Below are positions 45,820 through 61,346 of a stretch of 64,000 nt of DNA, piece after piece (position 1 is the first letter of the stretch; every line of letters begins with the position of its first letter). The translations under genes and the position numbers were made by a program. The stretch spans positions 4,240-68,239 of the forward strand of contig JAYWED010000031.1 of assembly GCA_043779525.1 (NCBI GenBank), read 5' to 3'. This stretch comes from Candidatus Eiseniibacteriota bacterium. Its GTDB lineage: Bacteria; Eisenbacteria; RBG-16-71-46; SZUA-252. The notes beneath the pieces were generated by a model. The model saw nothing but the letters and a program-made list of their open reading frames with translations, was not told the origin of the DNA and searched no databases.

Positions 45820-47046
45820 CTACTCCCAGCGGAGCGAATCCACCGGGTCCAGCTGCGCCGCCTTCACGGCCGGGTAAATCCCGAAGAAGAGCCCGATCAC
45901 GGTCGAGGAGATGAACCCGAGCGCCATCCCCCACACGGGGACCGCGAAGCTGAATTTGGCCAGGACGTGGATCAGGTATCCCGTCCCGATCCCCGCCAGG
46001 ATGCCCAGGATCCCGCCGGTCCCGGTGAGCGTCATCGCCTCGACCAGGAACTGCCAGAGGATGTCGCGCCGCCGCGCCCCGAGCGCCTTCCGCACGCCGA
46101 TCTCCCGGGTCCGCTCGGTCACCGAGACCAGCATGATGTTCATGACGCCGATCCCCCCCACCATGAGACCGATCGAGGAGATCAGCATCATGACCAGGTA
46201 GAAGGCGCCCGTCACCTGCTTGTAGATGTCGACGAGCGACTGGTCCGTGAACACCGCGAAGTTGTCCGCCTGCCGGTACCCCACCTTGCGCTGCCGCCGC
46301 AGCGTCTCGGTCATCTGGTCGATGGCGGTGTCGATCAGCTCGGGCGATTCCGGCTTCGCGTTCAGGACCATGCGAAGATTGGGGCCCAGGGTCTTCTCCA
46401 GGGTGCTGTACGGGACGATCACGATGTCGTCGAGGCTCATGCCGATGAACTTGCCGCGCTCCTCCACCTGGCCGATCACGGTGTAGGGATAGCCCCCGAC
46501 GTAGATCGTCTTTCCCATGGCATTGGCGTGCGGGAACAGAGTCTCGATCTGGTCCTTGCCGAGCACGCATACCGTCGATCGGTGCTCCACCTCAGTCTCG
46601 GTGAAGAAGCGCCCGTTCGCGATGGCCCACGTGTTCGTGACCAGGAAGTCGGGCGTGGTGCCGATGACCTGCGTGATCCGGCTCTCGGAATCCCGGTAGC
46701 GGAGCCGCGCCTCGACGAAGTTGAGCGGCGCCACCGCCTTCACCGCCGGGCAGGTGCGGCGGATCGCCTCCGCGTCCTCCACCGTGAACCACTTTCGCCG
46801 CCTCAGGCTGTCGGGGAATCCGCCCACGAAGGCCCCCGGCCGGAACGGGCGGATGTAGAGCACGTCGGAGCCGATGGCCGCGATCTGGGCCTTCATGCTC
46901 TGGTTCAGCCCCTCGATGAGGGAGACGATGGCCATGATGCTCGTGATGCCGATGATGACCCCGAGCACGGTGAGGAAGGAGCGAAGCTTGTTGGTCCGGA
47001 TCGCGCCGAACGCGATCGAGATCCCTTCGCGAACGTCGACGGCCAC
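45820..47046 (-). CDS. ABC transporter permease, FtsX/MacB-like (permease 2)
   Basis: N-terminal TM, large periplasmic domain, C-terminal 3-TM FtsX domain (...[22 protein letters not shown]...). Confidence 0.85.
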   Translation of the reverse strand: MAVDVREGISIAFGAIRTNKLRSFLTVLGVIIGITSIMAIVSLIEGLNQSMKAQIAAIGSDVLYIRPFRPGAFVGGFPDSLRRRKWFTVEDAEAIRRTCPAVKAVAPLNFVEARLRYRDSESRITQVIGTTPDFLVTNTWAIANGRFFTETEVEHRSTVCVLGKDQIETLFPHANAMGKTIYVGGYPYTVIGQVEERGKFIGMSLDDIVIVPYSTLEKTLGPNLRMVLNAKPESPELIDTAIDQMTETLRRQRKVGYRQADNFAVFTDQSLVDIYKQVTGAFYLVMMLISSIGLMVGGIGVMNIMLVSVTERTREIGVRKALGARRRDILWQFLVEAMTLTGTGGILGILAGIGTGYLIHVLAKFSFAVPVWGMALGFISSTVIGLFFGIYPAVKAAQLDPVDSLRWE

Positions 47047-47049
47047 GCG

Positions 47050-48303
47050 CTACTCCTGCCGGAGCGCCACGATCGGGTCGAGCTTCGCGGCCCGGGTCGC
47101 GGGATAGACGCCGAAGAAGAGACCGATGGAGGAGGCGACGATGAGGCTGATCGCGACCGACCAGGGCTGGATGGAGGCCGGGAGCGGCGTGAACAGGCGG
47201 ACCAGGAGCGCCAGCGCCACGCCGACCAGGACGCCCAGAAGGCCGCCGAAGAGGGAGAGCACCACCGTCTCGCTCAGGAACTGCGAGAGAAGGTCGCTCC
47301 TCCGGGCGCCCAGCGCCTTGCGGATTCCGATCTCGCGGGTCCGCTCGGTCACCGCCACCAGCATGATGTTCATGATCACGATGCCCCCCACGAGGAGCGA
47401 GATCGCGACCAGCCCGATCGTGCCGGCGTAGATTCCCTTCGTCAGGCTCTCGTAGAGCGACATGTAGGTCTCGGACGTGGTGATCGCGAAGTCGTCCGTC
47501 TTCCCGATCGGGACGTGCCGGCGGGCGCGCAGGATGACGCGCGCCTCGTCCTGGACGCGCTCCAGGCTCGCCCCGGGACGGGCGCGCTCCAGGATCACGA
47601 TCGAGTCGTGCGGGCCGAAGATCTTCTGGTACTGGCCGAAGGGAAGGAGCACGAAGTTGTCCTGGCTCTGTCCGAGCACATTCCCACGCGCCGCCACCGT
47701 GCCCACGACCTTGAGCGCGTATCCCGCCACCCGGATCTCCTGGCCCACGGGGTCCACCACCGGGAAGAGCTGCTGGGCCAGCTCGGATCCGATCAGGCAC
47801 ACCGCGCGGCGTTTCGCGATCTCGTCGTCTTCGAGCGCCCGGCCCTGATCGACGTCGTAGGTCCCGACCGTCTCGTATCCCTCCGTGGTGCCGAGGATGC
47901 GCACGTTCTGGAGCTCGACCTTCCCGGCGCGCACCCGCTTGTTCGTCTCGAGCTGCCCCACCACCTCGCCCGCGAGTCGCGATCTGTCCTTCAAGGCGTC
48001 GGCGTCGAGAAGGGTCAGATCCCGCCGCTTCATCGCGTCGCGCCAGGCGTCCTCGTTCGTGATGAGCCCGAACTTGTCGATGTAGATGACCTTGAGGCCC
48101 TGCTCGAGCACCTTCTCGCTCACGTACGTGTTCATGCCGTCGATCACGGCGACCACCGCGATCACCGACATCACCGCGACCACGTTGCCGACGACGGTCA
48201 GGACCGAGCGGAGCTTGTTCGCGCGGAGCGCCTCGAGGGCGATCCTGAGATTCTCGCCCTGGGCGGCCCAGAACTCCCGCGGGGGCCGCGGGGCCCTAGT
48301 CAT
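47050..48303 (-). CDS. ABC transporter permease, FtsX/MacB-like (permease 1)
   Basis: Same architecture as 45820..47046 (...[22 protein letters not shown]...). Confidence 0.85.
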
Positions 48304-49070
48304 GGCGCGGGCGTCGGGGTCGCGGCGCGGCTTGAGGGCGGGGTCGCGGGATTCCGGGCGGCGCGCGTGGTGGCCTGATCGCTCTCGATCTTGCCGTCGC
48401 GGAGCCTCACGATGCGCTCGGCGTTCGCCGCGATGTCTTCCTCGTGCGTGACCAGGATCACGGTGTTCCCTCCACGGTGGACTTCGTCCAGGAGGGTCAT
48501 GATCTCGATACCGGTCTTCGAATCCAGATTGCCGGTCGGCTCGTCCGCGAGGACGATCGAGGGCTCGTTCACGAGGGCCCGCGCGATGGCGACGCGCTGA
48601 CGCTGGCCGCCCGAGAGCTCGTTCGGCCGGTGGTGGGTGCGGTCGCCCAGGCCGACCAGATTGAGCATCGCCCGGGCGCGCTCGCGACGGTAGGGCTTGG
48701 GGCGGCCCGCATAGATCATCGGCAGCTCCACGTTGTGGAGCGCGTCCGCGCGCGCGAGAAGGTTGAACGTCTGGAAGATGAACCCGACCTCCTGATTGCG
48801 GATGCGGGCCAGTTCGTCGTCCTCGCGATCCCGGATCTCGGTCCCGCGCAGCTTGTAGGAACCGCTGCTCGGGGTGTCCAGGCAGCCCACGATGTTCATG
48901 AGCGTGGACTTCCCCGAGCCCGAGGGGCCCATGATCGCGACGTACTCGCCGCGCTGGATGCGAAGCGAGACGCCGTCCAGCGCGTTCACCAGGGCGACGC
49001 CCATCTGATACACCTTGCGGATATCGACGAGCTCGATGAGCGTGCCGTCCGCCGATTGATCCTGGCTCAC
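48300..49070 (-). CDS. ABC transporter ATP-binding protein (MacB/LolD-type)
   Basis: [36 protein letters not shown]. Confidence 0.9.
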
Positions 49071-50359
49071 GATTTGTCGCCCTTCTTGGTTTTCGGCTCT
49101 TCGATCTTCACCTTGCTGCCGGGCTTGAGCTGACGCAGCACCTTGTTGGGGCCCGTGATGACCTTCTCCTTTTCCTTCACGTCTCCGGTGACCTCGAGGT
49201 CGGTGTCGCTCGCGATCCCGGTGCGCACCCTCCGGAACTGCGCGACGCCGTCGACCATCACGAAGACGCCCTTGATCTCTTCGTTCTTCTTCGCCGGCTC
49301 CGGAGGATTGGGCTCGGCCGCGGCCGCGCCTGTGCGCGAGCGGCCCGCCCTCCCCACCTTTGCCTTGGAGAGCTCCTCCGCGGTCCGCACGACCACCGAC
49401 TGGATGGGCACGTGCAGGACGCCCGTCTTGGTTGCGGTCTTGATCTCCACGTCGGCGGTCATTCCCGGCCGAAGCGTGGGCGGCGGGTTATCGATCCTCA
49501 CGTCCACGACGAAATTGGTCTGCTGCTCCTGAGTCCCCAGCTCCGAGATCTTGGGCGAGTTCGCGATCTTGGCGACCCTGCCGGTGAGCGTGGTGTCGGG
49601 CAGCGCGTCCACCTTGACCGTCGCGGTCTGGCCCAGCCGGATCGACGCGACGTCGGTCTCGTCCACATCCGCCTCCACCTTCATGCCGCGGAGATCGGCG
49701 ACGCTCAGCACCACCGTGCCGGGATTGTTCATGGTTCCCACCATGACGATCTCGCCCCGTTCCACGTTGAGCTGGGTCACGGTGCCGTCGATCGGAGAAT
49801 GGAAAATGGTCTTCCTCAGATTGTCCTGGGAGCTCTGAACCGCGGCCGTCGCGCGGGCAACCTCCTCGCGATTCACGTCCGCTCGGGCCTGGTCGGTGTT
49901 GTGCTCCGTGCGCGCGATCTCGATCTCCTCGGGGGAGACGAGCTTCCGCTCGAACAGGGATTCCTTGCGCTTGAGAAGCGACTCCGATCGCTGGAGGGCG
50001 ACCTCGGAGAGGCGGAGGTTGGATTTTGCGGCGTCGAGCGCTGCCTGGCTCTGCCGGAGCTGGGCCTGGTATTGCGTGGCGTCAAGCTGGAGCAGGAACT
50101 GGCCCTTCTTGACCGGGTCCCCCTCCTTCACCGCGAGCCTCACGACTTCGCCCGGCACATTGGCGCTCAGCTTGACCAGGACTTCAGGCTGCACCTTCGC
50201 GGGAGCGCGCACGGTCGACGAGATGTCGCCTAAGGTAACCGGCTCAGCCTGAACTCCCTGGCGTCCGCCCTGCCCCTTCGCGACATTGGCGATGACGATC
50301 GCGGTGAGGAGAATGATTCCTCCTCCGATCAGCAGCCCCCGCTTCACGGCCGGCTTCAT
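49067..50359 (-). CDS. Efflux periplasmic adaptor (membrane fusion protein, HlyD/MacA family)
   Basis: N-terminal TM anchor, long coiled-coil ([20 protein letters not shown]...), beta-barrel and MP domains. Confidence 0.85.
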
Positions 50360-50383
50360 GCTCGGATGGCTCCCTTCATGTCT

Positions 50384-51862
50384 CTAGTAACGTCGCGCGC
50401 CCACGGCGCGTTCCATCGCCGCCTCGGCCACATGGGCGTCGGCCAGGGCCTCGACGTAGCTCTGCTTGGCCTGGGAGAGGCTGACCTCGGCGTTGAGCAG
50501 GTCCAGGATCGTTCCCGCCCCCAGCTCGTAGCGCCCCTTGGAGAAGTTGTAGTCCTCCTGGGCGGAGGCAAGCCCTTCCTTCGCCACGTCGATGCGGTCC
50601 ACGGCTTCGCGCACCGAAAGCCAGGCCTGCTGCACCTCGACCGCCACGTCCACCTCGCGCTGGCGCCGCTCCGCCTCGGCCTCGAGGAGCGTGCCCTTGG
50701 CGGATTTGGCGCCGCCCTCCGTCGCGAACCCGTTGAATACCGGCAGCGACAGCCGCACCTGTCCGAACCATTCGGTCGCATCGTAGGTGTCGTCGAACTG
50801 GCCGAACCCCAGCTGTTCCACGCGGGTCGTATTTCTCGAGCGATCCACCTCGATCGAGCCGGTCACGGAAGGCAGGCGCTTGGCGCGGGCCCCGAAAAGG
50901 CCGGCGCGCGCGGCCCGCTCTGCCGCGGCGGCGCGCGACAGCTCGGGGCGGGTCTGAAGCGCCGTGCTCACCGCCGTGGCGGAATCCGGAAGCACGACGT
51001 TCTCATCCAGCGCCGTGTCGATGAAGAGCGGCGTCCCGGGCTTCAGACCGATCACCTGCTTCAGCTTCGAACGCTGAATCTCGACCTGGTTCACGGCGCG
51101 GATCCGGTCCAGCTGTGTCGTGGCCCGCCGTGCGCGCGCCTTGAGCACGTCTCCACGCGCGACGGTCCCCACTTCAAAGAGGGCCTCGGCGCGCGATTCC
51201 TCATCCCGGGCGAGGCGCTCGGACTCGCGCGATACCTCCGCGAGCCGCTCCGCCTTCACAAGGGTGAAGTATTGCTGCTTGGCGGTGTATACGACGCCGT
51301 TTCGCGCCTCTGCTTCTGATTCGCGGGCGGTCCGGCTCAGGAGATTCTGCCGGTGCTTCTCCGACCAGGCGGGAACGCTCAGGAGATTCGTCTGCACGGC
51401 GGCGGTGGCGATCTTTCGCTGGGTGCGCTTGACCAGGAAGGTCGTCGTGCCCGTCGAGTCCGCCACGATGTAGACGGAATTCCGCTTGTCGGGAATCTGG
51501 TGAGTGTACGACAGGTTCCCGGTCAGGGAAGGCAGGATACCGCTCCAGGCTGAGAGCGCCGACCCCTGCGCCTGCACCGTGCGGGCATGCGCCGCCCTCG
51601 CATCCACGTTCCCTTCCAGGGCGGCAGCGACCACCCGGGCCAGGCTCCAGCGCTCGCCAGGGGGAACCGAAGGCTCCGCCAGACCCGCTCCGCGGTCCAG
51701 CCCGACACCGCCGAATCCAAGACTGTCTGGCGCCGCGGCTGGGGCCGGCGATCCCGGCGCATCTGTCCGGGCCGCGGCCGGCCCGGCCGTCAGAACGAGG
51801 ACCGTCACCGCCACCGCGATCCACATGAGCTTGGACACCCCGCGCGCGCGGGGGCGCCCCAT
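50384..51862 (-). CDS. TolC-like outer-membrane efflux protein (OEP family); start approximate
   Basis: Two OEP repeats with long alpha-helical coiled coils; plausible signal peptide MGRPRARGVSKLMWIAVAVTVLVLTAGPAAA; ORF-track 5' extension discounted because the upstream gene ends at 51952. Confidence 0.75.
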   Translation of the reverse strand: MGRPRARGVSKLMWIAVAVTVLVLTAGPAAARTDAPGSPAPAAAPDSLGFGGVGLDRGAGLAEPSVPPGERWSLARVVAAALEGNVDARAAHARTVQAQGSALSAWSGILPSLTGNLSYTHQIPDKRNSVYIVADSTGTTTFLVKRTQRKIATAAVQTNLLSVPAWSEKHRQNLLSRTARESEAEARNGVVYTAKQQYFTLVKAERLAEVSRESERLARDEESRAEALFEVGTVARGDVLKARARRATTQLDRIRAVNQVEIQRSKLKQVIGLKPGTPLFIDTALDENVVLPDSATAVSTALQTRPELSRAAAAERAARAGLFGARAKRLPSVTGSIEVDRSRNTTRVEQLGFGQFDDTYDATEWFGQVRLSLPVFNGFATEGGAKSAKGTLLEAEAERRQREVDVAVEVQQAWLSVREAVDRIDVAKEGLASAQEDYNFSKGRYELGAGTILDLLNAEVSLSQAKQSYVEALADAHVAEAAMERAVGARRY

Positions 51863-51951
51863 TCCCTCCACCATCGATTCACCTCCCATGGGTTCGGTAA
51901 CTCCATCCATACGCCGTGCGCTCCGCCGGAGTTTCCGCAAGGTGGCCGCGC

Positions 51952-52656
51952 TCAACGCTGAAGCCCCGAGAGGCAGACCAGGATCAGGTAGCCGGGAAGA
52001 ACCGCCAGAAGGCCGAATCCGAAACCCTTGCGCGCCATGGCGGCCACGCCGATCGCCTGGACCGCGGTCGCCCAGAGGAGAAGCGGGTCGGTGGAGGTGT
52101 CCAGAATGCGCGTGAAGGCATTGAGGTCCTCGCCGAGAAACGCGCCGATCCCCATGTGAACCATGAGGGTGCCCCGCCCGAGCGCGAGCCCCATGCGGAC
52201 GATCTGGTCCACGGTGCCCACGACGGCCGCGTAAGAGACAATGCAAAGATAGTGCGCGTATCGCAGCCGGGCCCCGAGCATGAGATTGGCCATGAAGTAG
52301 ATGAGCGCCGCGGAGATGAGGAGCGAGAACGCGAGCACGATCGGTCCCGCGACCGCGAACACGTACTTGAGCGGCCCGTCCATGGCTTTGGTGACCGCGT
52401 CGATCTGTTCGGGAGCGGTGTTCTTCGCCTCGAGTTTGGCGATCGTGTCGTTCTTCAAGATTCCCGACTGCGCGAGCACCATGCCGAAGGCGAGTTGAAA
52501 CAGCACGACGACCAGGATCGGCGCGAAAAAGCTCGGCCTGGCCACGAGCGACTCGAAGGTCGCCTTAGGCTTGGTGAAGACGCCGATGATTCGTCCCAGG
52601 GCGGACATCGGCGGCGCCTCCGGACCGGGCTCGATCTGCACGACATCGGTGTTCAT
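51952..52656 (-). CDS. Yip1-domain (DUF1282-like) multi-pass membrane protein
   Basis: ~5 TM helices after short N-terminal cytoplasmic segment; start taken at MNTDVVQIEPG. Confidence 0.5.
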   Translation of the reverse strand: MNTDVVQIEPGPEAPPMSALGRIIGVFTKPKATFESLVARPSFFAPILVVVLFQLAFGMVLAQSGILKNDTIAKLEAKNTAPEQIDAVTKAMDGPLKYVFAVAGPIVLAFSLLISAALIYFMANLMLGARLRYAHYLCIVSYAAVVGTVDQIVRMGLALGRGTLMVHMGIGAFLGEDLNAFTRILDTSTDPLLLWATAVQAIGVAAMARKGFGFGLLAVLPGYLILVCLSGLQR

Positions 52657-52672
52657 ATTGTCCCCCAATGCA

Positions 52673-53419
52673 TTATAGATGAACATTCAGGCGAAAGTTG
52701 AACGGAACCGCGACCGTGCACATGACCGGAATTCCCTGCTGGGAGCCGGGGCTGAAGCGGAAGTGGTACAAGGCGTCCACCGCGGACTGGACCAGGATCT
52801 CCGGCGCGGTCGATTGCGCCACCCACACGCGAACCACGCGCCCACCCGGGTCCACGTTCGCGTTCAGAACGACCGTCCCTTCGGCGACCTGCGCCATTGC
52901 CGCGACCGAGTATTCCGGCACGACGCGCGCGAGGACCTGCGGCGGCGAATCGAACGCGTAGAAGACCGAGGGCGTTTCGTCGCCGGCTCCGGAGCCAGCT
53001 CCGGAGCCGGTGCCGCCAGCGCCCGAGCCTCCCGCGCCCGCACCCCCGTCGCTCTGAGAGTCGGCGCCCCGGCCCCGGCGCTCCGCATTACCGATCGGCT
53101 TCTCCGGAGTGGCCTGCGTCTCCAGGCGGAGCTGCTCGGTGAGGACCGCCGGACCCCGCCGCGCGGCCGGATCGACGACCGGGCGCGGCGCCTCGGCCGC
53201 TCTGCCCGGGGCGACCGAAGCATCCCCGCCCGCGGCACCGGAGCCGCCCGCCGCCACGAGCCGGAGCGGTGAAGCGTCGAGCCGGTAGGGCCGCGGGACG
53301 TAAGGGGGCGCGAGCACGAGAACGGCCGCGTGGAGCGCCAGCGCGACCAGAACGGCGACCTCGAGCCGCAGGTTGTACCCGCGCTCCAGCGCGTTTGCGT
53401 CGTGCCCCGAGAAGGTCAT
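52673..53419 (-). CDS. tonB: Energy transducer TonB (module 2)
   Basis: N-terminal TM, Gly/Ala/Ser/Pro-rich linker, C-terminal TonB domain ...YSVAAMAQVAEGTVVLNANVDPGGRVVRVWV...FRFSPG. Confidence 0.7.
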   Translation of the reverse strand: MTFSGHDANALERGYNLRLEVAVLVALALHAAVLVLAPPYVPRPYRLDASPLRLVAAGGSGAAGGDASVAPGRAAEAPRPVVDPAARRGPAVLTEQLRLETQATPEKPIGNAERRGRGADSQSDGGAGAGGSGAGGTGSGAGSGAGDETPSVFYAFDSPPQVLARVVPEYSVAAMAQVAEGTVVLNANVDPGGRVVRVWVAQSTAPEILVQSAVDALYHFRFSPGSQQGIPVMCTVAVPFNFRLNVHL

Positions 53420-53826
53420 CGCGCCCGGGACCGTTCGGTCGTGAGCAGCACGCGCGCGGCGTGCGCCCGCTCCACCTCGTCCAGGACGCGAGCCACCGTG
53501 CCGTAGGGCACGCGGGCGTCCGCGTAGAGGGCGATGGAGAGCGACGGGTTCGCGGCCAGCTTCGCCGCGAGCGTGTCCCCGACGCGCTCCATCGGCACCG
53601 AAGCGTCATTGAACGCCACCTCTCCGCGAGGACCGACCCAGACGCGAATCACGCGCTCCCGCTGGAAGTGCTCCCCGGTCGTGGCGCCCGGAAGCTGGAC
53701 CGAAAGCGCTTCCCGCGACTTGAAGATCGTGGTGCTGAGAAAGAAAATCAGCAGGAGCATGGCGATGTCGGCCATGGAAGCGGTCGGAATCACATTGTGA
53801 TGACGCGCCCGCCGCCGGATCCTCAC
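53416..53826 (-). CDS. exbD: Biopolymer transport protein ExbD/TolR (module 2, copy b)
   Basis: MADIAMLLLIFFLSTTIF TM + periplasmic domain. Confidence 0.8.
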   Translation of the reverse strand: MRIRRRARHHNVIPTASMADIAMLLLIFFLSTTIFKSREALSVQLPGATTGEHFQRERVIRVWVGPRGEVAFNDASVPMERVGDTLAAKLAANPSLSIALYADARVPYGTVARVLDEVERAHAARVLLTTERSRAR

Positions 53827-54230
53827 GGCGCGGCCTTGGTCTGGATCGAGACCTGGCGCGCGCCGGCCAGCTTGACCTGGTCGAGAGCCTCCACAAGCGA
53901 GGCGTAGGGCGCCCGCTCGTCCACCAGGAGAATCAGGAGGAGGTCCGGCGTTCCCCGGAGCTTCATCCGGATCGCGCCTCCGAGCGCGTCCATCGGGACG
54001 GCCACGCCGTCGAGCGCCACCGATTCGTCCGCCGCCACGATCACGCGCGCCGTCTTCGCGGATGCGACCACGAGCGGCGGCTCGCCGGGACGCGGCAGCT
54101 CGAGGGAAATCCCGCGCTGGGTCGCGAAGATGGTCGTCGAGAGGAAGAAGATCAGGAGCAGGAACGAGACGTCCGCCGTGGACACGAGCGGAATCTCGGG
54201 ATGAGGATGGCGCCGCTTGAGGATCTTCAT
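53823..54230 (-). CDS. exbD: Biopolymer transport protein ExbD/TolR (module 2, copy a)
   Basis: VSTADVSFLLLIFFLSTTIF; start taken at MKILKRR. Confidence 0.75.
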   Translation of the reverse strand: MKILKRRHPHPEIPLVSTADVSFLLLIFFLSTTIFATQRGISLELPRPGEPPLVVASAKTARVIVAADESVALDGVAVPMDALGGAIRMKLRGTPDLLLILLVDERAPYASLVEALDQVKLAGARQVSIQTKAAP

Positions 54231-55021
54231 CGCGGCGAGGGAGTCCCCGGCGGCTTCAAGGTCGAGAGAAACGTCTCCCATTGCCTGGAGTAGGTGGCGA
54301 CGGCGTCGATCAGCTCCGCGCCCGACTCCTCCATGTCGATCACGAACTTGTCGATCCGCGAGACGAAGTAGTTGTGCGCCGTCTGGACCGGGATCGCCAC
54401 GATCAGCCCCGCCGCGGTCGTGATCAGCGCTTCGTAGATCCCGGTGGCCACGAGCTTCGCGGAGACCTCCTCGGCCCCGGCGATCGCCTCGAAGGCGTGG
54501 ATCATTCCGGACACGGTGCCCAGGAATCCGAGAAGAGGCGCTATGTTCGCGACGGTCGCGAGCCAGATCAGGCCGCGCTCCAGGCCCGCTGTGTGGATGG
54601 AGGCCGCGGTCTCGATCGCCTTCTCCACGGCCTCGGGCCCCTTTTTCGCGCGAAGCAGCCCGGAATGGAGAACCGCGGCGATCGGGCCGCGCTTCGAGTG
54701 AAGCATCCGCTGCGCGGCCTCGAAGCCCTCGTCCTGCAGGACACGAAGCAACTCCCCCATCAGGCGCCTGGTGTCGGTGCGCGCCTTGGCGAAGAAATAG
54801 AGCCTCTCGAGGATGATGGCGAGGCCGAGGACCGAGCAGAGAAGAATGGGGTGCATGAAGACCCCGCCCGTGACGTAGAGCTCGATCAGCCCGCTCTCAT
54901 TCGGAACGCGGCCGCCGGCGCCGGTCTTGGCCCAGGCGACAGCGGCCAGGAAAAGCCCCGAAAAGGCTATGGGCGCGATCCGGAACCACTTGGGGAAGCG
55001 GAACTTGGGGCGGATAGCCAT
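54227..55021 (-). CDS. exbB: MotA/TolQ/ExbB proton-channel protein (module 2)
   Basis: 3 TM; conserved C-terminal ...VANIAPLLGFLGTVSGMIHAFEAIA...ATGIYEALITTAAGLIVAIP. Confidence 0.85.
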   Translation of the reverse strand: MAIRPKFRFPKWFRIAPIAFSGLFLAAVAWAKTGAGGRVPNESGLIELYVTGGVFMHPILLCSVLGLAIILERLYFFAKARTDTRRLMGELLRVLQDEGFEAAQRMLHSKRGPIAAVLHSGLLRAKKGPEAVEKAIETAASIHTAGLERGLIWLATVANIAPLLGFLGTVSGMIHAFEAIAGAEEVSAKLVATGIYEALITTAAGLIVAIPVQTAHNYFVSRIDKFVIDMEESGAELIDAVATYSRQWETFLSTLKPPGTPSPR

Positions 55022-55272
55022 GTCCGGGGAGACTAGCCCCGCACCCTCGGAGTGTCAAAAGGAAAGTCCCGGGCCTCCGCCGAGCTGAAACGAGATAGGG
55101 ATCTCGACCCAGATCGGCGGGGCCACCCAGAAACGGGGGCGGCGGTGACGCGAGAGCGGATGCCATGACGGCTGCTCCATCCCGGCGGATCGAAGCAAGA
55201 AAGGCCTGTCCGGGGGGGGACAGGCCTCGATACAAACGATCGGCGGGCGGCAGCGCCGCGCGCCGGAACGCG

Positions 55273-56001
55273 CTAGAAGTGGAAGTCCATGGGGACCTCG
55301 ACCCAAACCGCCACCGGCTTGTTGTTGCTCAGCGCCGGCTTGAACACCCACTTCTTGATCGCTTCCACCGCGGCATCGTCCAGACCCTTCACGCCCTTGA
55401 TCACCTTGACGTTCTTCACCTTGCCATCCTTGCCCACCAGCACGTGGAGCGTCACCTTGCCCTGGATCTGCGCCTCGCGCGCGAACTCGGGATATGAGGG
55501 CTCCACGCGGATGATCGGAGTCGGCTCGTCCTCGTAGTACACGAACTCCCCTTCGTTGGGCATTTCATCGGAGGCGATCACGAGACTGTCCTTGCCCGAC
55601 CCGCTGAGGCCGACCGGCGTGTTCATAGCGGCGATCTCCTGCTGGGTGCTGATCGTCTGCTCCGGCGCGAGCGCATCGGCTACCGGCACCGGCGTTCCGA
55701 TGGTCGGCTTCACGATGGGCTGATTCGGGATGACCGGCGGCGGGGGCGCGTCCGAGAGCGGGGGCGGGGGCGGCATGGTCTGCATGCGGATCACGCGTCC
55801 CGTGTACTCCACCTCGTCCTTCGGGTGCCAGAGCGTCGTCGCGACGTAGATCCCGACGAGCCCCAGGTGGATCGCGGCGGAGATGATGAGCGCCTTGCGC
55901 AGCATCCGCTGCGAGTTCGCCTTGAGATCGGCCGCGCCGATCGGAATCCTCTGGGTCGTATCCGTGAAACCCGACGTGGTCATTGCTCCCGTCGCCGTCA
56001 C
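55273..56001 (-). CDS. tonB: Energy transducer TonB (module 1)
   Basis: TM ALIISAAIHLGLVGIYV, Pro-rich PPPPPLSDAPPPPVIP, C-terminal ...AQIQGKVTLHVLVGKDGKVKNVKVIKG...WVFKPA. Confidence 0.7.
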   Translation of the reverse strand: MTATGAMTTSGFTDTTQRIPIGAADLKANSQRMLRKALIISAAIHLGLVGIYVATTLWHPKDEVEYTGRVIRMQTMPPPPPLSDAPPPPVIPNQPIVKPTIGTPVPVADALAPEQTISTQQEIAAMNTPVGLSGSGKDSLVIASDEMPNEGEFVYYEDEPTPIIRVEPSYPEFAREAQIQGKVTLHVLVGKDGKVKNVKVIKGVKGLDDAAVEAIKKWVFKPALSNNKPVAVWVEVPMDFHF

Positions 56002-56507
56002 AGCGTCTCGACCTCCTTCTTCTCCTCCGGAGTCAGCGGCGCCAGCGAGAACCGGTTCAGCTCGGCGAACTGGAGCTGATCGATGATGTCTACCATGTAG
56101 CGGTACTTCGCCTTCCGATCAATCTTGACCAGCACCACGAGCTTCGGGTTCTTCTTCCCCTCGGCTGCGAAAATGGGCTGGAGCTTGCTGATACTCACTT
56201 CCGTGAACGGGTCCTTGGCCAGCCTCCAGAAGGCCCTCGCCTCGCCGACGCTGTCGGCAGGCGCGATGACGCGGAGCGTCATGACGTTGGATTCCGCGAT
56301 CTCCACCTTCGCGTGGGGATCGGGCGGGAGATTTATTTCCAGAGCTTGCGGCTTCCGGAATACGGTGGTGCACATGAAAAAGATCAGGAGGAGGAACGCC
56401 ACGTCCACCATGGGGGTCATGTCGATCTTGACCCCGATGCGCTTCGGCTTGCGCCGTCTGCCCTTCTTGTGTTTTACGCCTGATTCAGGGGTGTCTACGG
56501 CACCCAT
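55998..56507 (-). CDS. exbD: Biopolymer transport protein ExbD/TolR (module 1, copy b)
   Basis: IDMTPMVDVAFLLLIFFMCTTVF. Confidence 0.8.
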   Translation of the reverse strand: MGAVDTPESGVKHKKGRRRKPKRIGVKIDMTPMVDVAFLLLIFFMCTTVFRKPQALEINLPPDPHAKVEIAESNVMTLRVIAPADSVGEARAFWRLAKDPFTEVSISKLQPIFAAEGKKNPKLVVLVKIDRKAKYRYMVDIIDQLQFAELNRFSLAPLTPEEKKEVETL

Positions 56508-56541
56508 CGGAGCGAGCTCCTTCCGGTCTCAGCCGCGCGGG

Positions 56542-56985
56542 TCAATGCGTCAGCGCGGATTTCTTACTGGTCACCAGCTCCGTGACCAGGCAGAAGGTGA
56601 TCGTATTGGTCTTCTGCATCACGGCCATGATGTCTTCCATCGTTCCGTAGTCGCTGATCTTGTCCGCCTTGATGGCGACGCGAAGGCGCGGGTTACGGCG
56701 GCGCTGGTCGGTCACGATTGTCTCTAGATTTGCCATGTCCGTGAACTCCTGGGGCTTCTTTCCGATCTGATAGAGAATCTGGTTCTCCTTGCCAACGCCG
56801 ATCGTCATCACGTCCGACTCCGGCACTTTCAGGTTCGAATGGCTGTCCGGAATCGTGATCGGCAGCTTCTGCGGCGGATCGAACTGCGAGGTGGACATGA
56901 AGAAGATCAACAAGAGAAACGCCACGTCCACCATGGGCGTCATGTCGATCTTGACGCCGATCCGGCGCATCTTCTTGGCGGCCAT
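56542..56985 (-). CDS. exbD: Biopolymer transport protein ExbD/TolR (module 1, copy a)
   Basis: IDMTPMVDVAFLLLIFFMSTSQF; Lys-rich, lower GC than module 2. Confidence 0.8.
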   Translation of the reverse strand: MAAKKMRRIGVKIDMTPMVDVAFLLLIFFMSTSQFDPPQKLPITIPDSHSNLKVPESDVMTIGVGKENQILYQIGKKPQEFTDMANLETIVTDQRRRNPRLRVAIKADKISDYGTMEDIMAVMQKTNTITFCLVTELVTSKKSALTH

Positions 56986-57690
56986 TTACTTCGTCGCCTC
57001 TTTCATGGAAAGCACCTCGACGACCTCGACGCTGGCCTCGTCCATCATGTAGTTGAAGTTGTCGATCATCGTGACGAACACGTTGTACAGAACGATCGAG
57101 AAGATGGCGACGAAGAGCCCGCCGGCCGTGTTCACGAGCGCTTCGGAGATTCCGAGCGCCAGTTTCACGGCGTCCACCGAGCCGGTGTGGCCCAGAGCGG
57201 CGAAGGAGCGGATCATCCCGATGACCGTTCCAAGGAGCCCGACCATCGTGGCGATCGAGGCGATCGTCGCGAGCGCGATCAGGTTGCGCTCGAGGAGCGG
57301 CACCTCGAGCATGTTCGCTTCTTCCATCGCCTTCTGCACTTCCTCCATGCGGGTTTTCAGATCGAGATTCACGTTGCGGATGACGGCGTACCGGTCGAGC
57401 CCGGCGCGGAGCACGTTTGCGAGCGAGCCGCGCTGTTTGGCGCAGAGGGCGGCGGCGCCTTCGATGTCCATGGCGTCGATCTTCTGCCGGATCTGCCGCA
57501 TGAACGCCGGGACCGGCATCGTGCCGCGGGCCCGGCTCAGCGTGAAGAGCCGCTCGAACGTCAGGGTCACCGACATGATCGAGAGCATGATGAGAAGCGC
57601 GACCAGCGGTCCGCCCTTCTTGATGTAATCCGGAAGGAAATTGTAGACCACGATCGCGATGACGAGCGCGACGACGGCCACAATCGTCAT
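56986..57690 (-). CDS. exbB: MotA/TolQ/ExbB proton-channel protein (module 1)
   Basis: Start at MTIVAVVALVIAIVVYNF preceded by AAGGA SD; ...IASIATMVGLLGTVIGMIRSFAAL...SEALVNTAGGLFVAIFSIVLYN. Confidence 0.85.
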   Translation of the reverse strand: MTIVAVVALVIAIVVYNFLPDYIKKGGPLVALLIMLSIMSVTLTFERLFTLSRARGTMPVPAFMRQIRQKIDAMDIEGAAALCAKQRGSLANVLRAGLDRYAVIRNVNLDLKTRMEEVQKAMEEANMLEVPLLERNLIALATIASIATMVGLLGTVIGMIRSFAALGHTGSVDAVKLALGISEALVNTAGGLFVAIFSIVLYNVFVTMIDNFNYMMDEASVEVVEVLSMKEATK

Positions 57691-57860
57691 GAACAATCCT
57701 TGTTTCACCGAATCCTCCTCCTCTTCCAGTTGGGCGAGCCGCTTACCGTGCAGGCAGCTGCTCGAGACGACATGAGGGGAACCCTTTTGAAGCTCAACGC
57801 GGCTCTGCCAGAAGCCGGGCCTCAAGTATGCTACCAAGAGCCCCCCTCCGGCAACCCCGC

Positions 57861-58199
57861 CTATTCGAAGCTCTTCAAGGCGTCCTTCTCCGTATCGTAC
57901 ACCTCGAATACCAGCGAGAGCTTGGTCACGACGAAGATGTTCTGGATCTTCTTGTCCACCGCCGCCAGCTTCATCTTGGCGCCCCGTTTGGCGTAGCTCG
58001 TATGCCCCCCGATGAGGACGCCGAGAGAGACGCTGTTCATGAAGGTGGTCTTCTCCAGATTGATCAGGAGCTTCTTGTTCCCGGCCTCCGTCAGCTCCCG
58101 GATCTTGCCCTGGAGCTCGTCGGTCTCCTTGCCTCCGAGAAGCATCCCCTTCGGCGTGAGCACCGTGACATCGCCGACCGTTCGAACATCCAGACTCAT
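57861..58199 (-). CDS. STAS-domain protein (SpoIIAA-like anti-sigma-factor antagonist)
   Basis: MSLDVRTVGDVTVLTPKGMLLGGKETDELQGKIRELTEAGNKKLLINLEKTTFMNSVSLGVLIG... with Ser at the position of the phosphorylatable SpoIIAA serine. Confidence 0.6.
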   Translation of the reverse strand: MSLDVRTVGDVTVLTPKGMLLGGKETDELQGKIRELTEAGNKKLLINLEKTTFMNSVSLGVLIGGHTSYAKRGAKMKLAAVDKKIQNIFVVTKLSLVFEVYDTEKDALKSFE

Positions 58200-58256: not shown

Positions 58257-60206
58257 CTACTTCGTGCCCGCCCCGCCCGGTTTCGTTGCCGTGCCCGGTT
58301 TCGTTGCCGTGCCCGGTTTCGGAGACGCGCCCTGCTTTGGAGACGCGCTCTGTGCCGACGCCTTGGATCCAGCGCTCGCTTTCAGCGCCTTCTGCTCTTC
58401 GTATTTACGAATCAGCCCGAGACCCCTCGCGGCGTCCTGGTTGTTCGGATCGATGTCGATCGCCCTGTTGAATTCCGACTTGGCGCGCGCGACGTCCCCG
58501 CTGTTCGAATACGCCTGCGCGAGCCAGATGTGCCCCTGGAGGTTGTCCGGCTCGAACTGGGCCGCCCGTTCCAGAGGCGGGATCGCGTCTCCCCAGTTTT
58601 TCTGGAGCAGGTAGACGACCCCGAGTCCACGGTACGCCTCGGCGTTCACGGAATCGGCCGCGATCGCGGCCTGATACATCTCCTGGGCCTCGGGCAAGGA
58701 GTCCAGCGAGGTCAGAGTCTGCGCGATCCAGATGCGGGGGCGATTGTCCTTGGGATTCACGTCCAGGGCGTGCCGCAAGTACACGATGCCCTCGTTGGGC
58801 TGCTTGACCGCGAATTTCGCCAGCCCGATGTTCATGAGCGCGGACAGGAAATTAGGATCCGAGCGGAGCGCGGCTTCGAAGTACGGAATGGCGCCGGCGA
58901 AGTCCTTGCGAGCGAAGTACAGGAAACCGAGCTGGAAGTTGGCGTCCTTGGTCAGCGTGGAATCCATCTGGACGGCGTGAAGGAGCTGCGGAACGGCCTT
59001 GGATGAGTCCTTGTTGGCGACGTACATGGTGCCGAGCCGAAGATGATCCTCGGCGGTCATGAGCGTATCCGCGCACTGCGCATACTGGTCGTAGTACTTG
59101 AGGGCGTTCTCCAGATCCGGCGTCGGGCGCCGCTCGAAGTAGAGCTTCCCGAGCGCGCCGGCGGTCTCGCAGGACGCCGGATTCGCCTCGTACGCCTTCG
59201 TGAGCACCGGGATGGCCTTCTCGCGGTCCTCGGGGTTCTGGCTCTTCGCGAGCGCGCGCCCCAGCTCCATGTACCCCTCGGGGTCATCCGGCTTGAGCCC
59301 GATATAGATCTCGAGCTTTTCCGCCGCGTCTGCCGACCGGTTGGCGCGGAAATAGAGGCGCCCCGCCTCGAGATAGGCCAGGGCATACGTGGAATCCACC
59401 TCGATCGCCCGCATGTACGAGGCGAGCCCCGCGTTGAACTCGTTCATTCCCACGAGCGCGTGTCCCGCGAGGTAGTGGGCTTCGGGATTCTTGGGATCCA
59501 GCTCCGCGGCCTTCACGTACTCGGGGGCCGCGAGGACCGGAATCTTCTTGCGCTCGTAGAAGCCTCCGAGGTCCAGCCGCACCCGGAGATTGTTGGGATC
59601 GGTCTCGCGGGCGCGAATGAAAATCTCCTCGGCCTGCTTCAGGTCGCCCTTTCCCTCGAGCGCCAGCGCCTGGCCGTCGAGAAAGAGCGCGCGCCCCTGC
59701 TTCAGGAGGGTGCCCTTGCGGAAGATCGCGAGCGCGTCGTCCCACTTCTTATCCTGAAGATATGCCTGGCCCAGGGCGTAGAGCGCCGCCGGATCCTTGG
59801 AGTCGTACTTCACCGCTTCCTGCAGCTTGGCCGTGCCTCCTTCCAGCTTGCCCCGCTTGCGGAGCAGCTTTCCGAGTCCGGTCAGGGCTTCCACGTACTT
59901 GGGCTCGATCCGGATGGCCGTCTGGTACTCGATCGCGGCGCTGTCGGGCTCGTCGAGCTTCTCCAGCGCGCTTCCGATGTAGTAATGCGGCTTGGCCCCG
60001 CCCGGATCCAGCCTCTGGGCCTGCGTGAAGAGCTCGAGCGCGCGCTTGAAGTTCTTTTGCGGGTCATTCCCGGCGGTTCCCGCGCGGTAGGCCTCGATGC
60101 CCTGCTTGATGATGTCGCCCGACTGAAGGGCGTATGCCGCCGAGGCGGCCAGGAGCAGTCCACCCGCGACGAGAGCGGGGAGGATGCGACGGACAGCGCG
60201 GTTCAC
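58257..60206 (-). CDS. Secreted TPR-repeat protein with Lys/Pro/Thr-rich repetitive C-terminal tail
   Basis: Signal peptide ILPALVAGGLLLAASAAYA; >10 TPR-like units (W-LG-Y-A-F-A-P consensus); tail ...KPGTATKPGTATKPGGAGTK encoded by an 18-nt tandem repeat at ~58270-58330. Confidence 0.8.
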   Translation of the reverse strand: MNRAVRRILPALVAGGLLLAASAAYALQSGDIIKQGIEAYRAGTAGNDPQKNFKRALELFTQAQRLDPGGAKPHYYIGSALEKLDEPDSAAIEYQTAIRIEPKYVEALTGLGKLLRKRGKLEGGTAKLQEAVKYDSKDPAALYALGQAYLQDKKWDDALAIFRKGTLLKQGRALFLDGQALALEGKGDLKQAEEIFIRARETDPNNLRVRLDLGGFYERKKIPVLAAPEYVKAAELDPKNPEAHYLAGHALVGMNEFNAGLASYMRAIEVDSTYALAYLEAGRLYFRANRSADAAEKLEIYIGLKPDDPEGYMELGRALAKSQNPEDREKAIPVLTKAYEANPASCETAGALGKLYFERRPTPDLENALKYYDQYAQCADTLMTAEDHLRLGTMYVANKDSSKAVPQLLHAVQMDSTLTKDANFQLGFLYFARKDFAGAIPYFEAALRSDPNFLSALMNIGLAKFAVKQPNEGIVYLRHALDVNPKDNRPRIWIAQTLTSLDSLPEAQEMYQAAIAADSVNAEAYRGLGVVYLLQKNWGDAIPPLERAAQFEPDNLQGHIWLAQAYSNSGDVARAKSEFNRAIDIDPNNQDAARGLGLIRKYEEQKALKASAGSKASAQSASPKQGASPKPGTATKPGTATKPGGAGTK

Positions 60207-61069
60207 TGTGCCTCCTCTGCGGTGCGCACGATGCGCACGGACACGGTCGCCGGCGCGTACCCGAATCGAGCGACGATCTGCTGCCCGTCCATGCCGGTGA
60301 CGAAATTCACGAAGTCGGTGGCCGTCGCGGGAGGCTTGCCTCGCGTGCAGAGCGAGATCCCGCGCAGGAGCGGGTAGGTCTTGAGCATCAAGGTCTCCCG
60401 GCCCAGCGGCGCGTAGGGGAATCCCTTTGCCGAGGAAACCCCGATCGCGCGCACTCGCTCATCCACGAATTGGCGGGAGACCAGGCCGATCGCGTCAGCG
60501 CGGGAGGCCACGAGATTCACGATCTCGGGCTCGCTCGCTTCCGCGTAGACACCGGGACCGTAGGCGGCGCCGTCGAGGAGGGCCTGCTGGACGAACTCGT
60601 AGAGCCCCAGCCGCGGCCCCGTGGTGAGCGGCACGATGGCGCCCCCCTCCCGGAATCCGAGCTTCGCCCAGTCCGTCAGGTCACCACGGTAGATCTGACC
60701 CAGCTCCGTCCGCGAGATCTGCTGCACCGGCGAGCGCTTGTTCACGATCACCGCGACCGCATCCCAGGCGAACGGAACGGCGTTCAGCCCCTCGCGCTCC
60801 ATCGCGGCCTTGATTTCGGGATCGCTCAACTCCCGGGTCAGAACCGACATGGTGACTTCATTGTTTACGAGTTGCTCCATTCCTTCCGCCGAACCGTTCG
60901 AGACGACCCGGATTTCGGCGGCCTCCGGATGCACGTCCCGAAACGCCTGGATCTCTCCTCGAAGCAACGGAACCAGATGCTCGGCGCCGGCAAGGACAAT
61001 CGGTGCGGGAAGGGTCTCGCGCGGGGGGGATGGCGACGAGCACGAGCCAAGGCACATGACGCCCAGCAT
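60203..61069 (-). CDS. PstS-family periplasmic-binding-protein-like lipoprotein (PBP superfamily)
   Basis: Lipobox MLGVMCLGSCSS; ...IRVVSNGSAEGMEQLVNNEVTMSVLTRELSDPE... matches PstS-like anion-binding fold; 4-nt overlap with TPR gene. Confidence 0.5.
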   Translation of the reverse strand: MLGVMCLGSCSSPSPPRETLPAPIVLAGAEHLVPLLRGEIQAFRDVHPEAAEIRVVSNGSAEGMEQLVNNEVTMSVLTRELSDPEIKAAMEREGLNAVPFAWDAVAVIVNKRSPVQQISRTELGQIYRGDLTDWAKLGFREGGAIVPLTTGPRLGLYEFVQQALLDGAAYGPGVYAEASEPEIVNLVASRADAIGLVSRQFVDERVRAIGVSSAKGFPYAPLGRETLMLKTYPLLRGISLCTRGKPPATATDFVNFVTGMDGQQIVARFGYAPATVSVRIVRTAEEAQ

Positions 61070-61346
61070 GACCGCCGCCCCAACCGGCCGGAGCCGCTTC
61101 GCCCGGCCTGTGGCTTTCACGATTCCAGAGTACCCACCCTGTGAGGCCGTGTCAACGCCGCCCGCGTTCCCGGGCTTCGCCCGCAACCTGCCCTAAGTAC
61201 CCCGCTTCACCGCGGTTTATTCCGCGCGCCGCTCTCCGTCCAGGAAGCCCTCACGGGATTGCCGGACCAAAAGAGGCTGGAAGTTAGTGCGGGAGGGGAA
61301 ATCCTGTCAACGGATTTTTCCCCGGAGACTTACGGACGCGGGACGG

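Follow-up and report, generated by a model that had tools for sequence, protein, structure and literature searches.

To our knowledge, ExbB has no described cytoplasmic partner, and we are aware of essentially nothing on how the Ton motor is controlled at the level of its activity rather than of its transcription. In Riemerella anatipestifer, the genes exbB2-exbD-exbD-tonB2 are located with leuS upstream and the gene of a phosphate-ABC-type substrate-binding protein downstream, and tonB2 of this system is needed for hemin uptake (PMC4446302). The exbB-exbD-exbD-tonB2 system of Flavobacteriia is also found in Flavobacterium psychrophilum (PMC4446302). Here, a homologous cassette is described from a Candidatus Eiseniibacteriota bacterium, within a stretch of 64,000 nucleotides (contig JAYWED010000031.1 of assembly GCA_043779525.1, forward strand positions 4,240 to 68,239) that is referred to in its whole length as the window. 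In this cassette a gene encoding a small STAS protein (57861-58199, minus strand) is located immediately upstream of exbB. A full-text literature search gave no description of a STAS protein linked to ExbB/ExbD/TonB, MotA or TolQ (papers on Leptospira mention both separately), in agreement with a preliminary description of this DNA, made from its sequence, which had regarded the pairing as undescribed.

Antagonists of the SpoIIAA/RsbV class are nearly always encoded beside a kinase and a sigma factor (spoIIAA-AB-sigF, rsbV-W-sigB). Other STAS proteins and domains have non-sigma targets or transporter-accessory roles, among them MlaB of MlaFEDB, the C-terminal STAS domain of SulP/SLC26, Vibrio SypA and Bordetella BtrV. 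MotA, of a 5:2 ion-driven motor, is subject to a cytoplasmic brake, the PilZ protein YcgR, which responds to cyclic di-GMP; we know of no YcgR-like regulator for ExbB or TolQ. The genes of the Tol-Pal system are laid out as ybgC-tolQ-tolR-tolA-tolB-pal-cpoB.

The STAS gene and its linkage to exbB

The STAS gene is a fixed member, placed first before exbB, of an ancient seven-gene cassette that encodes a PstS-fold lipoprotein, a tetratricopeptide repeat (TPR) protein, the STAS protein, ExbB, two different ExbDs (ExbD-a and ExbD-b) and TonB. In a STAS-selected scan (one genome per species, with a motif taken from an eight-sequence alignment), 358 loci were obtained; among the best 80 of these, which were kept, STAS was found directly upstream of exbB-exbD-exbD-tonB in all 78 loci where exbB was found, the remaining two being incomplete or without an open reading frame (ORF) call. 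These loci belong to Eisenbacteria, Kryptoniota and metagenome-assembled genomes (MAGs) labelled "Bacteroidetes". A denominator independent of STAS was provided by an ExbB-selected scan of metagenome contigs, performed with an ExbB alignment, which gave 63 loci with enough upstream sequence and a GC content of 26-61%; STAS lies directly upstream of exbB in 52 of them. The gene is also located directly 5' of exbB in four further loci with unrelated flanks, one with the gene order of Eisenbacteria (L089) and three with that of the Kryptoniota type (L094, an Ignavibacteria MAG; L095, a 4.2-Mb "Bacteroidota" MAG; and L096). The preliminary description had proposed the attachment of a STAS protein to a Ton energiser operon, with the suggestion to examine its co-occurrence with such loci in other genomes: both scans and the four further loci show the attachment to be conserved rather than accidental.

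The surrounding gene order differs among lineages. In Eisenbacteria the lipoprotein and TPR genes precede STAS and exbB, whereas in Kryptoniota and the "Bacteroidetes"-labelled MAGs the order is STAS-exbB-exbD-exbD-tonB followed by the lipoprotein and TPR genes. The STAS gene thus stays at exbB even where the lipoprotein-TPR pair moves downstream of tonB, and the adjacency holds across a GC content of 26% to 68%, differing flanks and rearranged cassettes. Wherever the flanking sequence is long enough, the cassette includes the lipoprotein gene, and the TPR gene is always paired with it. Several close STAS relatives (P0423, P0246, P0245 and P0249) are without ExbB linkage, and the linkage is therefore a property of a single orthologous group rather than of the entire clade.

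The STAS protein is as well conserved as ExbB and better conserved than the other cassette members, judged by median identity to the window proteins in deep Eisenbacteria and in Kryptoniota-type loci, respectively: 58% and 56% for STAS and 58% and 53% for ExbB, compared with 40-54% for the ExbDs, 37-44% for TonB and 25-32% for the lipoprotein and the TPR protein across both groups of loci. The last two evolve at three to four times the rate of STAS. The STAS ORF, whose coding nature was in question, has the properties of a genuine gene: its GC content at third codon positions (0.88) is similar to that of its neighbours, a strong Shine-Dalgarno sequence (GGAGAGGGAGGG) is located upstream of its ATG, its ratio of non-synonymous to synonymous changes (pN/pS) against eight orthologues is 0.07-0.22, and more than 170 protein clusters match it, many at 79-94% identity. 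These relatives consist of a tight Eisenbacterial family together with proteins at 40-59% identity.

The product (112 amino acids) is of the SpoIIAA/RsbV type, with a single STAS domain (Pfam PF01740, E 2.7e-12), no signal peptide and the cytoplasmic SpoIIAA fold. Foldseek analysis of its AlphaFold2 model (mean predicted local distance difference test score 95.4) gave as best hit SpoIIAA in its complex with SpoIIAB (1th8_B, template modelling (TM) score 0.91), then TM1442 and RsbV, with TM scores of 0.83-0.91 to the structures of these three proteins; the match to MlaB was weaker (TM 0.55-0.63). A sequence-profile search ranked the relatives of STAS in the same way as the structure search, and the NCBIfam model for anti-sigma factor antagonists (TIGR00377) was matched with 55.6 bits against a cut-off of 53.45 bits. 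Asn55-Ser56 is invariant in 118 sequences, comprising 80 STAS1 sequences (79 loci and the window) and 38 STAS2 sequences. Located at the N-terminus of helix 2, Ser56 aligns with the phospho-serine of SpoIIAA and TM1442 (FMDSSGLG, YMDSAGLG) and is a putative phosphorylation site.

About half of the deeper Eisenbacteria possess two tandem STAS genes before exbB (L026-L077; for example at 8004-8351 and 8380-8730 of L050). The second copy is divergent and keeps the Asn-Ser phospho-site, with its own invariant Cys51, Arg64 and His100. A single copy is found in the window's family.

The spacing between STAS and exbB is about 15 nt in two loci (L049 and L071) and about 55 nt in the Kryptoniota type, short gaps that argue for co-transcription in those lineages. 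In the window the two genes are separated by the interval 57709-57860 (minus strand), which was compared with the same position in 18 close relatives (L001, L004, L008-L023). Directly after the STAS stop codon there is a promoter-like element, TTGCCG-N18-CATACT (57825-57854, minus strand), which is kept as TTGCC-N17/18-CATACT in nearly all of these relatives with variable flanks, and a variable leader of about 110 nt lies between it and exbB1. A consensus promoter scan did not report this element. Its conservation suggests that exbB1 may have its own promoter in the window's family. A structured RNA or riboswitch in the leader was considered and rejected: no Rfam match was obtained, folding was no better than that of shuffled sequence (z = +0.67), and the only conserved features were the promoter-like element and a short variable hairpin. 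This hairpin, with co-varying arms (CGAGCCGC...GCGGCTCG), is located about 20 nt before the exbB1 Shine-Dalgarno sequence.

Proposed function and alternative explanations

The reading preferred here, put forward tentatively and with a confidence just below even, is that STAS may be a phospho-switch acting on the ExbB-ExbD-ExbD-TonB machine itself. Such a switch would make the activity or the assembly of an ExbB5-ExbD-a/ExbD-b-TonB motor depend on a signal from the cytoplasm. With Ser56 in one of its phosphorylation states, STAS would bind to the cytoplasmic face of the motor, either at the cytoplasmic domain of ExbB or at the basic N-terminal tails of the ExbDs, and once bound it would act as a brake, a clutch or an assembly factor; its kinase and phosphatase would be encoded elsewhere in the genome. 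With less assurance still, STAS can be proposed as a cytoplasmic regulatory subunit, the first to be known for a 5:2 proton motor of the Ton/Tol family, that is controlled by a phospho-serine and docks on ExbB5-ExbD-a/ExbD-b. The motor most probably powers TonB-dependent transporters of the outer membrane, like its counterpart from the homologous cassette of Riemerella, which lacks STAS; no gene for such a transporter was found among the window genes scanned.

Genes for an anti-sigma kinase, a PP2C phosphatase or a sigma factor were not found among the large genes of the window, nor in the 7-10 kb around the cassette in six loci annotated with Pfam, and the output of STAS is for this reason probably not a neighbouring sigma module. 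The neighbours of two STAS paralogues may hint, by analogy, at the kinds of enzyme that act on Ser56: P0246, 52-56% identical, is encoded directly after a GAF-SpoIIE (PP2C) gene, and P0245 adjoins a Ser/Thr kinase gene. In the loci of these close paralogues (52-56% identical), the GAF-SpoIIE gene is followed by a histidine kinase and a response regulator (L091, 5629-7348), and the Ser/Thr kinase is of the Hanks type (L092, 7001-8254).

Several observations weigh against a direct action of STAS on the motor. In 11 of the 63 ExbB-selected loci no STAS-like ORF was found anywhere, and STAS is therefore not an obligatory subunit of these related cassettes. No ExbB residue separates STAS-linked from STAS-less cassettes: of the 63 positions with at least 95% conservation in STAS-linked ExbB, 58 show equal conservation in the 11 loci that lack STAS, so that no dedicated docking surface is visible on ExbB. 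The fold of STAS is nearest to that of true sigma-pathway antagonists (TM 0.91) and less like that of the transporter accessory MlaB (TM 0.55-0.63). In the window's family, STAS may be transcribed with the lipoprotein and TPR genes rather than with exbB1, because the promoter-like element and the leader of about 110 nt separate the two. Finally, although 1.8 Mb of flanking sequence gave no kinase, phosphatase or sigma factor gene, this search was seeded with single sequences and is for that reason insensitive.

The STAS-less loci are L101, L120, L126, L133, L136, L145, L146, L151, L172, L175 and L176, and in these the gene preceding exbB encodes CarB, a sigma-54 activator or a PrmC-like methyltransferase. 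In L096 it is STAS that is preceded by PrmC, and this position of PrmC, before exbB in STAS-less loci and before STAS in L096, suggests a clean loss or gain of the STAS gene.

The most serious alternative, considered unlikely but not by a wide measure, is classical partner switching, in which STAS would antagonise an RsbW/SpoIIAB-type kinase encoded elsewhere and so control a sigma factor that has the Ton cassette, TonB-dependent transporters or both in its regulon. STAS would then be located at exbB merely for co-regulation or feedback, and the Ton motor would not be its direct target. Much that is seen in the protein itself fits this explanation: its fold and sequence are nearest to SpoIIAA, RsbV and TM1442, its phospho-serine is invariant, the NCBIfam assignment as an anti-sigma factor antagonist lies just above the cut-off, and paralogues of the same clade are encoded beside a PP2C phosphatase or a Ser/Thr kinase. 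The lack of an ExbB signature that tracks the presence of STAS is also in its favour. However, no kinase or sigma factor gene was found near any of the approximately 170 cassettes examined, unlike the situation of known antagonists, and a regulator acting at the level of transcription would not be expected to hold strict adjacency to exbB across phyla while its other neighbours change, nor to evolve as slowly as a core subunit of the motor.

It is improbable that the cassette encodes a Tol-Pal-like machine for envelope maintenance instead of a Ton system for nutrient uptake, with STAS in an accessory role like that of YbgC. Both ExbB1 and ExbB2 (the ExbB of a second, adjacent module) match TolQ models and structures better than those of ExbB: they align over their full length to solved TolQ structures and to E. 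coli ExbB only over its C-terminal transmembrane part, the profile of the ExbB1 orthogroup giving 1.3e-21 for the full-length alignment to TolQ structures and 1.8e-16 for the C-terminal alignment to E. coli ExbB. The ExbDs score best against TolR, the TPR protein has a sub-threshold match to YbgF/CpoB, TonB1 has a weak match to TolA, and the high conservation of the cassette resembles that of a housekeeping function. However, all TolQ, TolR and TolA matches are far below the curated cut-offs (for ExbB1 and ExbB2 the ExbB and TolQ equivalog models both fall below cut-off, with TolQ scoring higher), whereas tonB_Cterm is matched above its cut-off. In the window and in annotated relatives no TolB or Pal/OmpA-type gene was found in the cassette, and the Riemerella homologue serves hemin uptake (PMC4446302).

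The preliminary description had suggested that the TPR protein, the lipoprotein and STAS together form a sensory or regulatory front-end for TonB energisation. This proposal rests on the three genes being located together upstream of exbB in Eisenbacteria with short gaps (a GTGA overlap and 57 nt), but it is largely refuted by gene order and appears very improbable: the lipoprotein-TPR pair is downstream of tonB in Kryptoniota-type and Ignavibacteria-type cassettes with STAS still at exbB, and the lipoprotein gene accompanies the cassette without STAS in Riemerella and in L176. The three proteins also differ in compartment (STAS is cytoplasmic, the TPR protein is secreted and the binding protein is a lipoprotein) and show very different evolutionary rates. 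Least probable of all is that STAS is a neighbour by descent alone with no functional link, as the 11 of 63 cassettes without STAS and the promoter-like element before exbB1 in the window's family might suggest, since an adjacency that survives a GC content of 26-68%, different flanks and cassette rearrangement would not be expected without selection.

Kept at exbB across several phyla and evolving as slowly as ExbB, STAS is a concrete and testable candidate for a regulator of the Ton motor. If it is indeed a phospho-switch on the motor, partner-switching STAS proteins would gain an envelope motor driven by protons as a new class of output, and a partner-switching pathway would switch outer-membrane energisation post-translationally in Eisenbacteria, Kryptoniota, Ignavibacteria-type and related lineages. 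Were the link only transcriptional, a sigma-control module would still be connected to outer-membrane transport in a new way. Eisenbacteria, Kryptoniota and relatives of Ignavibacteria are abundant members of soil and sediment communities that depend strongly on TonB-dependent uptake, and a STAS regulator could matter for their nutrient physiology.

The two energiser modules and neighbouring genes

All genes named in the preliminary description were found to be present on the minus strand, with their domains assigned by Pfam above curated cut-offs. The MotA_ExbB family was matched by the ORF 56986-57690/57837 and by the ORF 54227-55021. The first of these is exbB1, which encodes a MotA/TolQ/ExbB proton-channel subunit of 240 amino acids (Pfam PF01618, E 2.6e-33). 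The gene had been placed at 56986-57690, and while the gene itself is real, this start does not hold: translation most likely begins at the GTG at 57708 (MKQGLF...), giving 56986-57708, because this start and its Shine-Dalgarno sequence are conserved in 18 relatives. Homologues of ExbB1 are likewise 240 amino acids long and 82-94% identical. ExbD-a (56542-56985; Pfam PF02472, E 7.2e-25) carries its transmembrane Asp in the motif PMVDVAFLLL, and ExbD-b (55998-56507; PF02472, E 2.8e-24) has a longer basic N-terminal tail. TonB1 (55273-56001; TonB_C, PF03544, E 8.8e-23; tonB_Cterm, TIGR01352, above cut-off) carries the SxxxH motif, as ISAAIH, in its N-terminal anchor, which is followed by a Pro-rich spacer and the TonB_C domain. 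GTGA overlaps join the end of exbD-b to the start of tonB1, and the end of the lipoprotein gene to the start of the TPR gene.

The second module is composed of ExbB2 (54227-55021; PF01618, E 4.8e-33), which has an N-terminal extension resembling a signal peptide, ExbD2a (53823-54230; PF02472), whose gene overlaps exbB2 with an ATGA start, ExbD2b (53416-53826; PF02472) and TonB2 (52673-53419; PF03544, E 1.5e-13). In TonB2 a Gly/Ala/Ser-rich spacer (GGAGAGGSGAGGTGSGAGSGAG) replaces the Pro-rich rod, and the anchor has the His without the Ser of SxxxH. Each module has two ExbD paralogues, as had been described, with four PF02472 genes in total, and the transmembrane Asp is present in all four proteins (MVDVAFLLL, MVDVAFLLL, TADVSFLLL and MADIAMLLL).

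The two energiser sets are old paralogues of distinct lineages, as judged from identities and tree topology. ExbB1 and ExbB2 are 35% identical, and TonB1 and TonB2 are 30% identical in the C-terminal domain only. The ExbDs are 27-29% identical across modules in near-full-length alignments and 37-42% within a module (ExbD2a and ExbD2b, 37%). In a neighbour-joining tree, ExbD-a and ExbD-b each cluster with the corresponding proteins of Kryptoniota-type, Ignavibacteria-type and other cassettes, and the duplication that gave rise to them is therefore ancient and predates these lineages; the ExbDs of module 2 form their own clade, a separate duplication. A recent duplication of the modules, which the preliminary description had named as one of two possible origins alongside distinct lineages, is thus ruled out by the 35% ExbB identity and the separate ExbD clades.

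The modules had also been described as two adjacent units in tandem. They are indeed adjacent and on the same strand, yet they are not one unit. A terminator-like hairpin (55201-55228, minus strand; 11 pairs, including 7 G-C pairs, followed by a T-rich tail) starts 45 nt past the tonB1 stop codon and would terminate transcription of module 1, and beside it the gap between tonB1 and exbB2 holds the 5' stump of a third tonB (MASALASPPPPFLGGPADL...). This remnant of about 20-44 codons (55110-55238, minus strand) was detected by tblastn, with 64% identity over 44 amino acids to the extra TonB of L012, and the third tonB is intact between tonB1 and exbB2 in L001, L012, L016, L019, L021-L023 and others. 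From this comparison, the gene has been deleted in the window, leaving the stump. Module 2 is restricted to close relatives of the window and is a variable add-on, which L004, L008, L019 and all deeper Eisenbacteria lack.

Downstream of the Ton genes lies a YknWXYZ/MacAB-TolC-like efflux cluster (45820-52686, minus strand) that encodes a Yip1/YknW-like protein, an outer-membrane efflux protein, a membrane fusion protein (HlyD), an ABC ATPase and two MacB permeases. Such a cluster is located downstream of the Ton genes in nearly all Eisenbacteria, and in the window its tight packing directly against tonB2 suggests co-transcription with module 2. The first gene of the cluster (51952-52686, minus strand) encodes a membrane protein assigned to Pfam Yip1, with a sub-threshold match to the NCBIfam YknW family. 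Membership of this gene in the Ton cassette was considered and rejected, the protein being YknW-like and belonging to the MacB efflux cluster.

At the opposite end of the region, the lipoprotein gene (60203-61186, minus strand; start probably near 61120) encodes a protein of the PstS fold (PBP_like_2, PF12849, E 5.9e-24) with the lipobox LGS/C. Its best relative in the PDB is PstS 4gd5, and the NCBIfam PstS family (TIGR02136) was matched with 108 bits, far below the cut-off of 207 bits. In the alignment to 4gd5, read by eye, the phosphate-binding motifs SGSTS, GSSAG and GSGT are replaced by AGAEH, GSAEG and RLGL. As these motifs are replaced and the score is half of the PstS cut-off, the protein is unlikely to bind phosphate; it has kept the PstS fold and lost the phosphate-binding motifs, and its ligand, if any, would probably be another compound. 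The cassette contains no pstCAB genes, either in the window or in annotated relatives. The periplasmic TPR protein (649 amino acids; 58257-60206, minus strand) matches many TPR families of Pfam and has a signal peptide (...AASAAYA/LQ); all of its NCBIfam matches, including that to YbgF/CpoB, are sub-threshold. It ends in a low-complexity tail (58257-58330, minus strand) of direct KPGTAT repeats, encoded by repeated 18-nt units, which is typical of a flexible and possibly surface-tethering extension.

Comparison with known systems

Like SpoIIAA, RsbV and TM1442, the STAS protein of the window consists of a single STAS domain of about 110 amino acids with the same fold and a serine at the start of helix 2. 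The residue before this serine is Asn in the window protein and Asp in SpoIIAA/RsbV-type antagonists. Unlike these proteins, it is encoded without an adjacent kinase, phosphatase or sigma factor gene and is located in a cassette for a membrane motor. MlaB, SulP, SypA and BtrV are precedents in which small STAS proteins regulate or stabilise a membrane machine encoded with them, although their partners are not motors of the MotA/ExbB/TolQ family. The window protein is encoded with a membrane machine, but its structural similarity to MlaB reaches a TM score of only 0.55-0.63, compared with 0.91 for SpoIIAA. In concept, the proposed function resembles that of YcgR, in that a soluble cytoplasmic protein would modulate a pentameric stator, with a different fold and a different signal.

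The cassette is similar to the Tol-Pal system in combining a small cytoplasmic protein, a TolQ/TolR-like motor, a transducer, a lipoprotein and a TPR protein, and differs from it in having no TolB or Pal, in Tol scores below cut-offs and in a transducer whose TonB_C domain scores above its cut-off. With the TonB2 system of Riemerella it has in common one ExbB, two different ExbDs, a TonB and the gene of a PstS-type binding protein, to which a TPR gene is added. Unlike the Riemerella operon, which has no STAS gene, the window cassette possesses one, and in Eisenbacteria the lipoprotein-TPR pair is located upstream and not downstream. The core of the cassette and its binding-protein companion were thus already known, and the STAS prefix is the new element.

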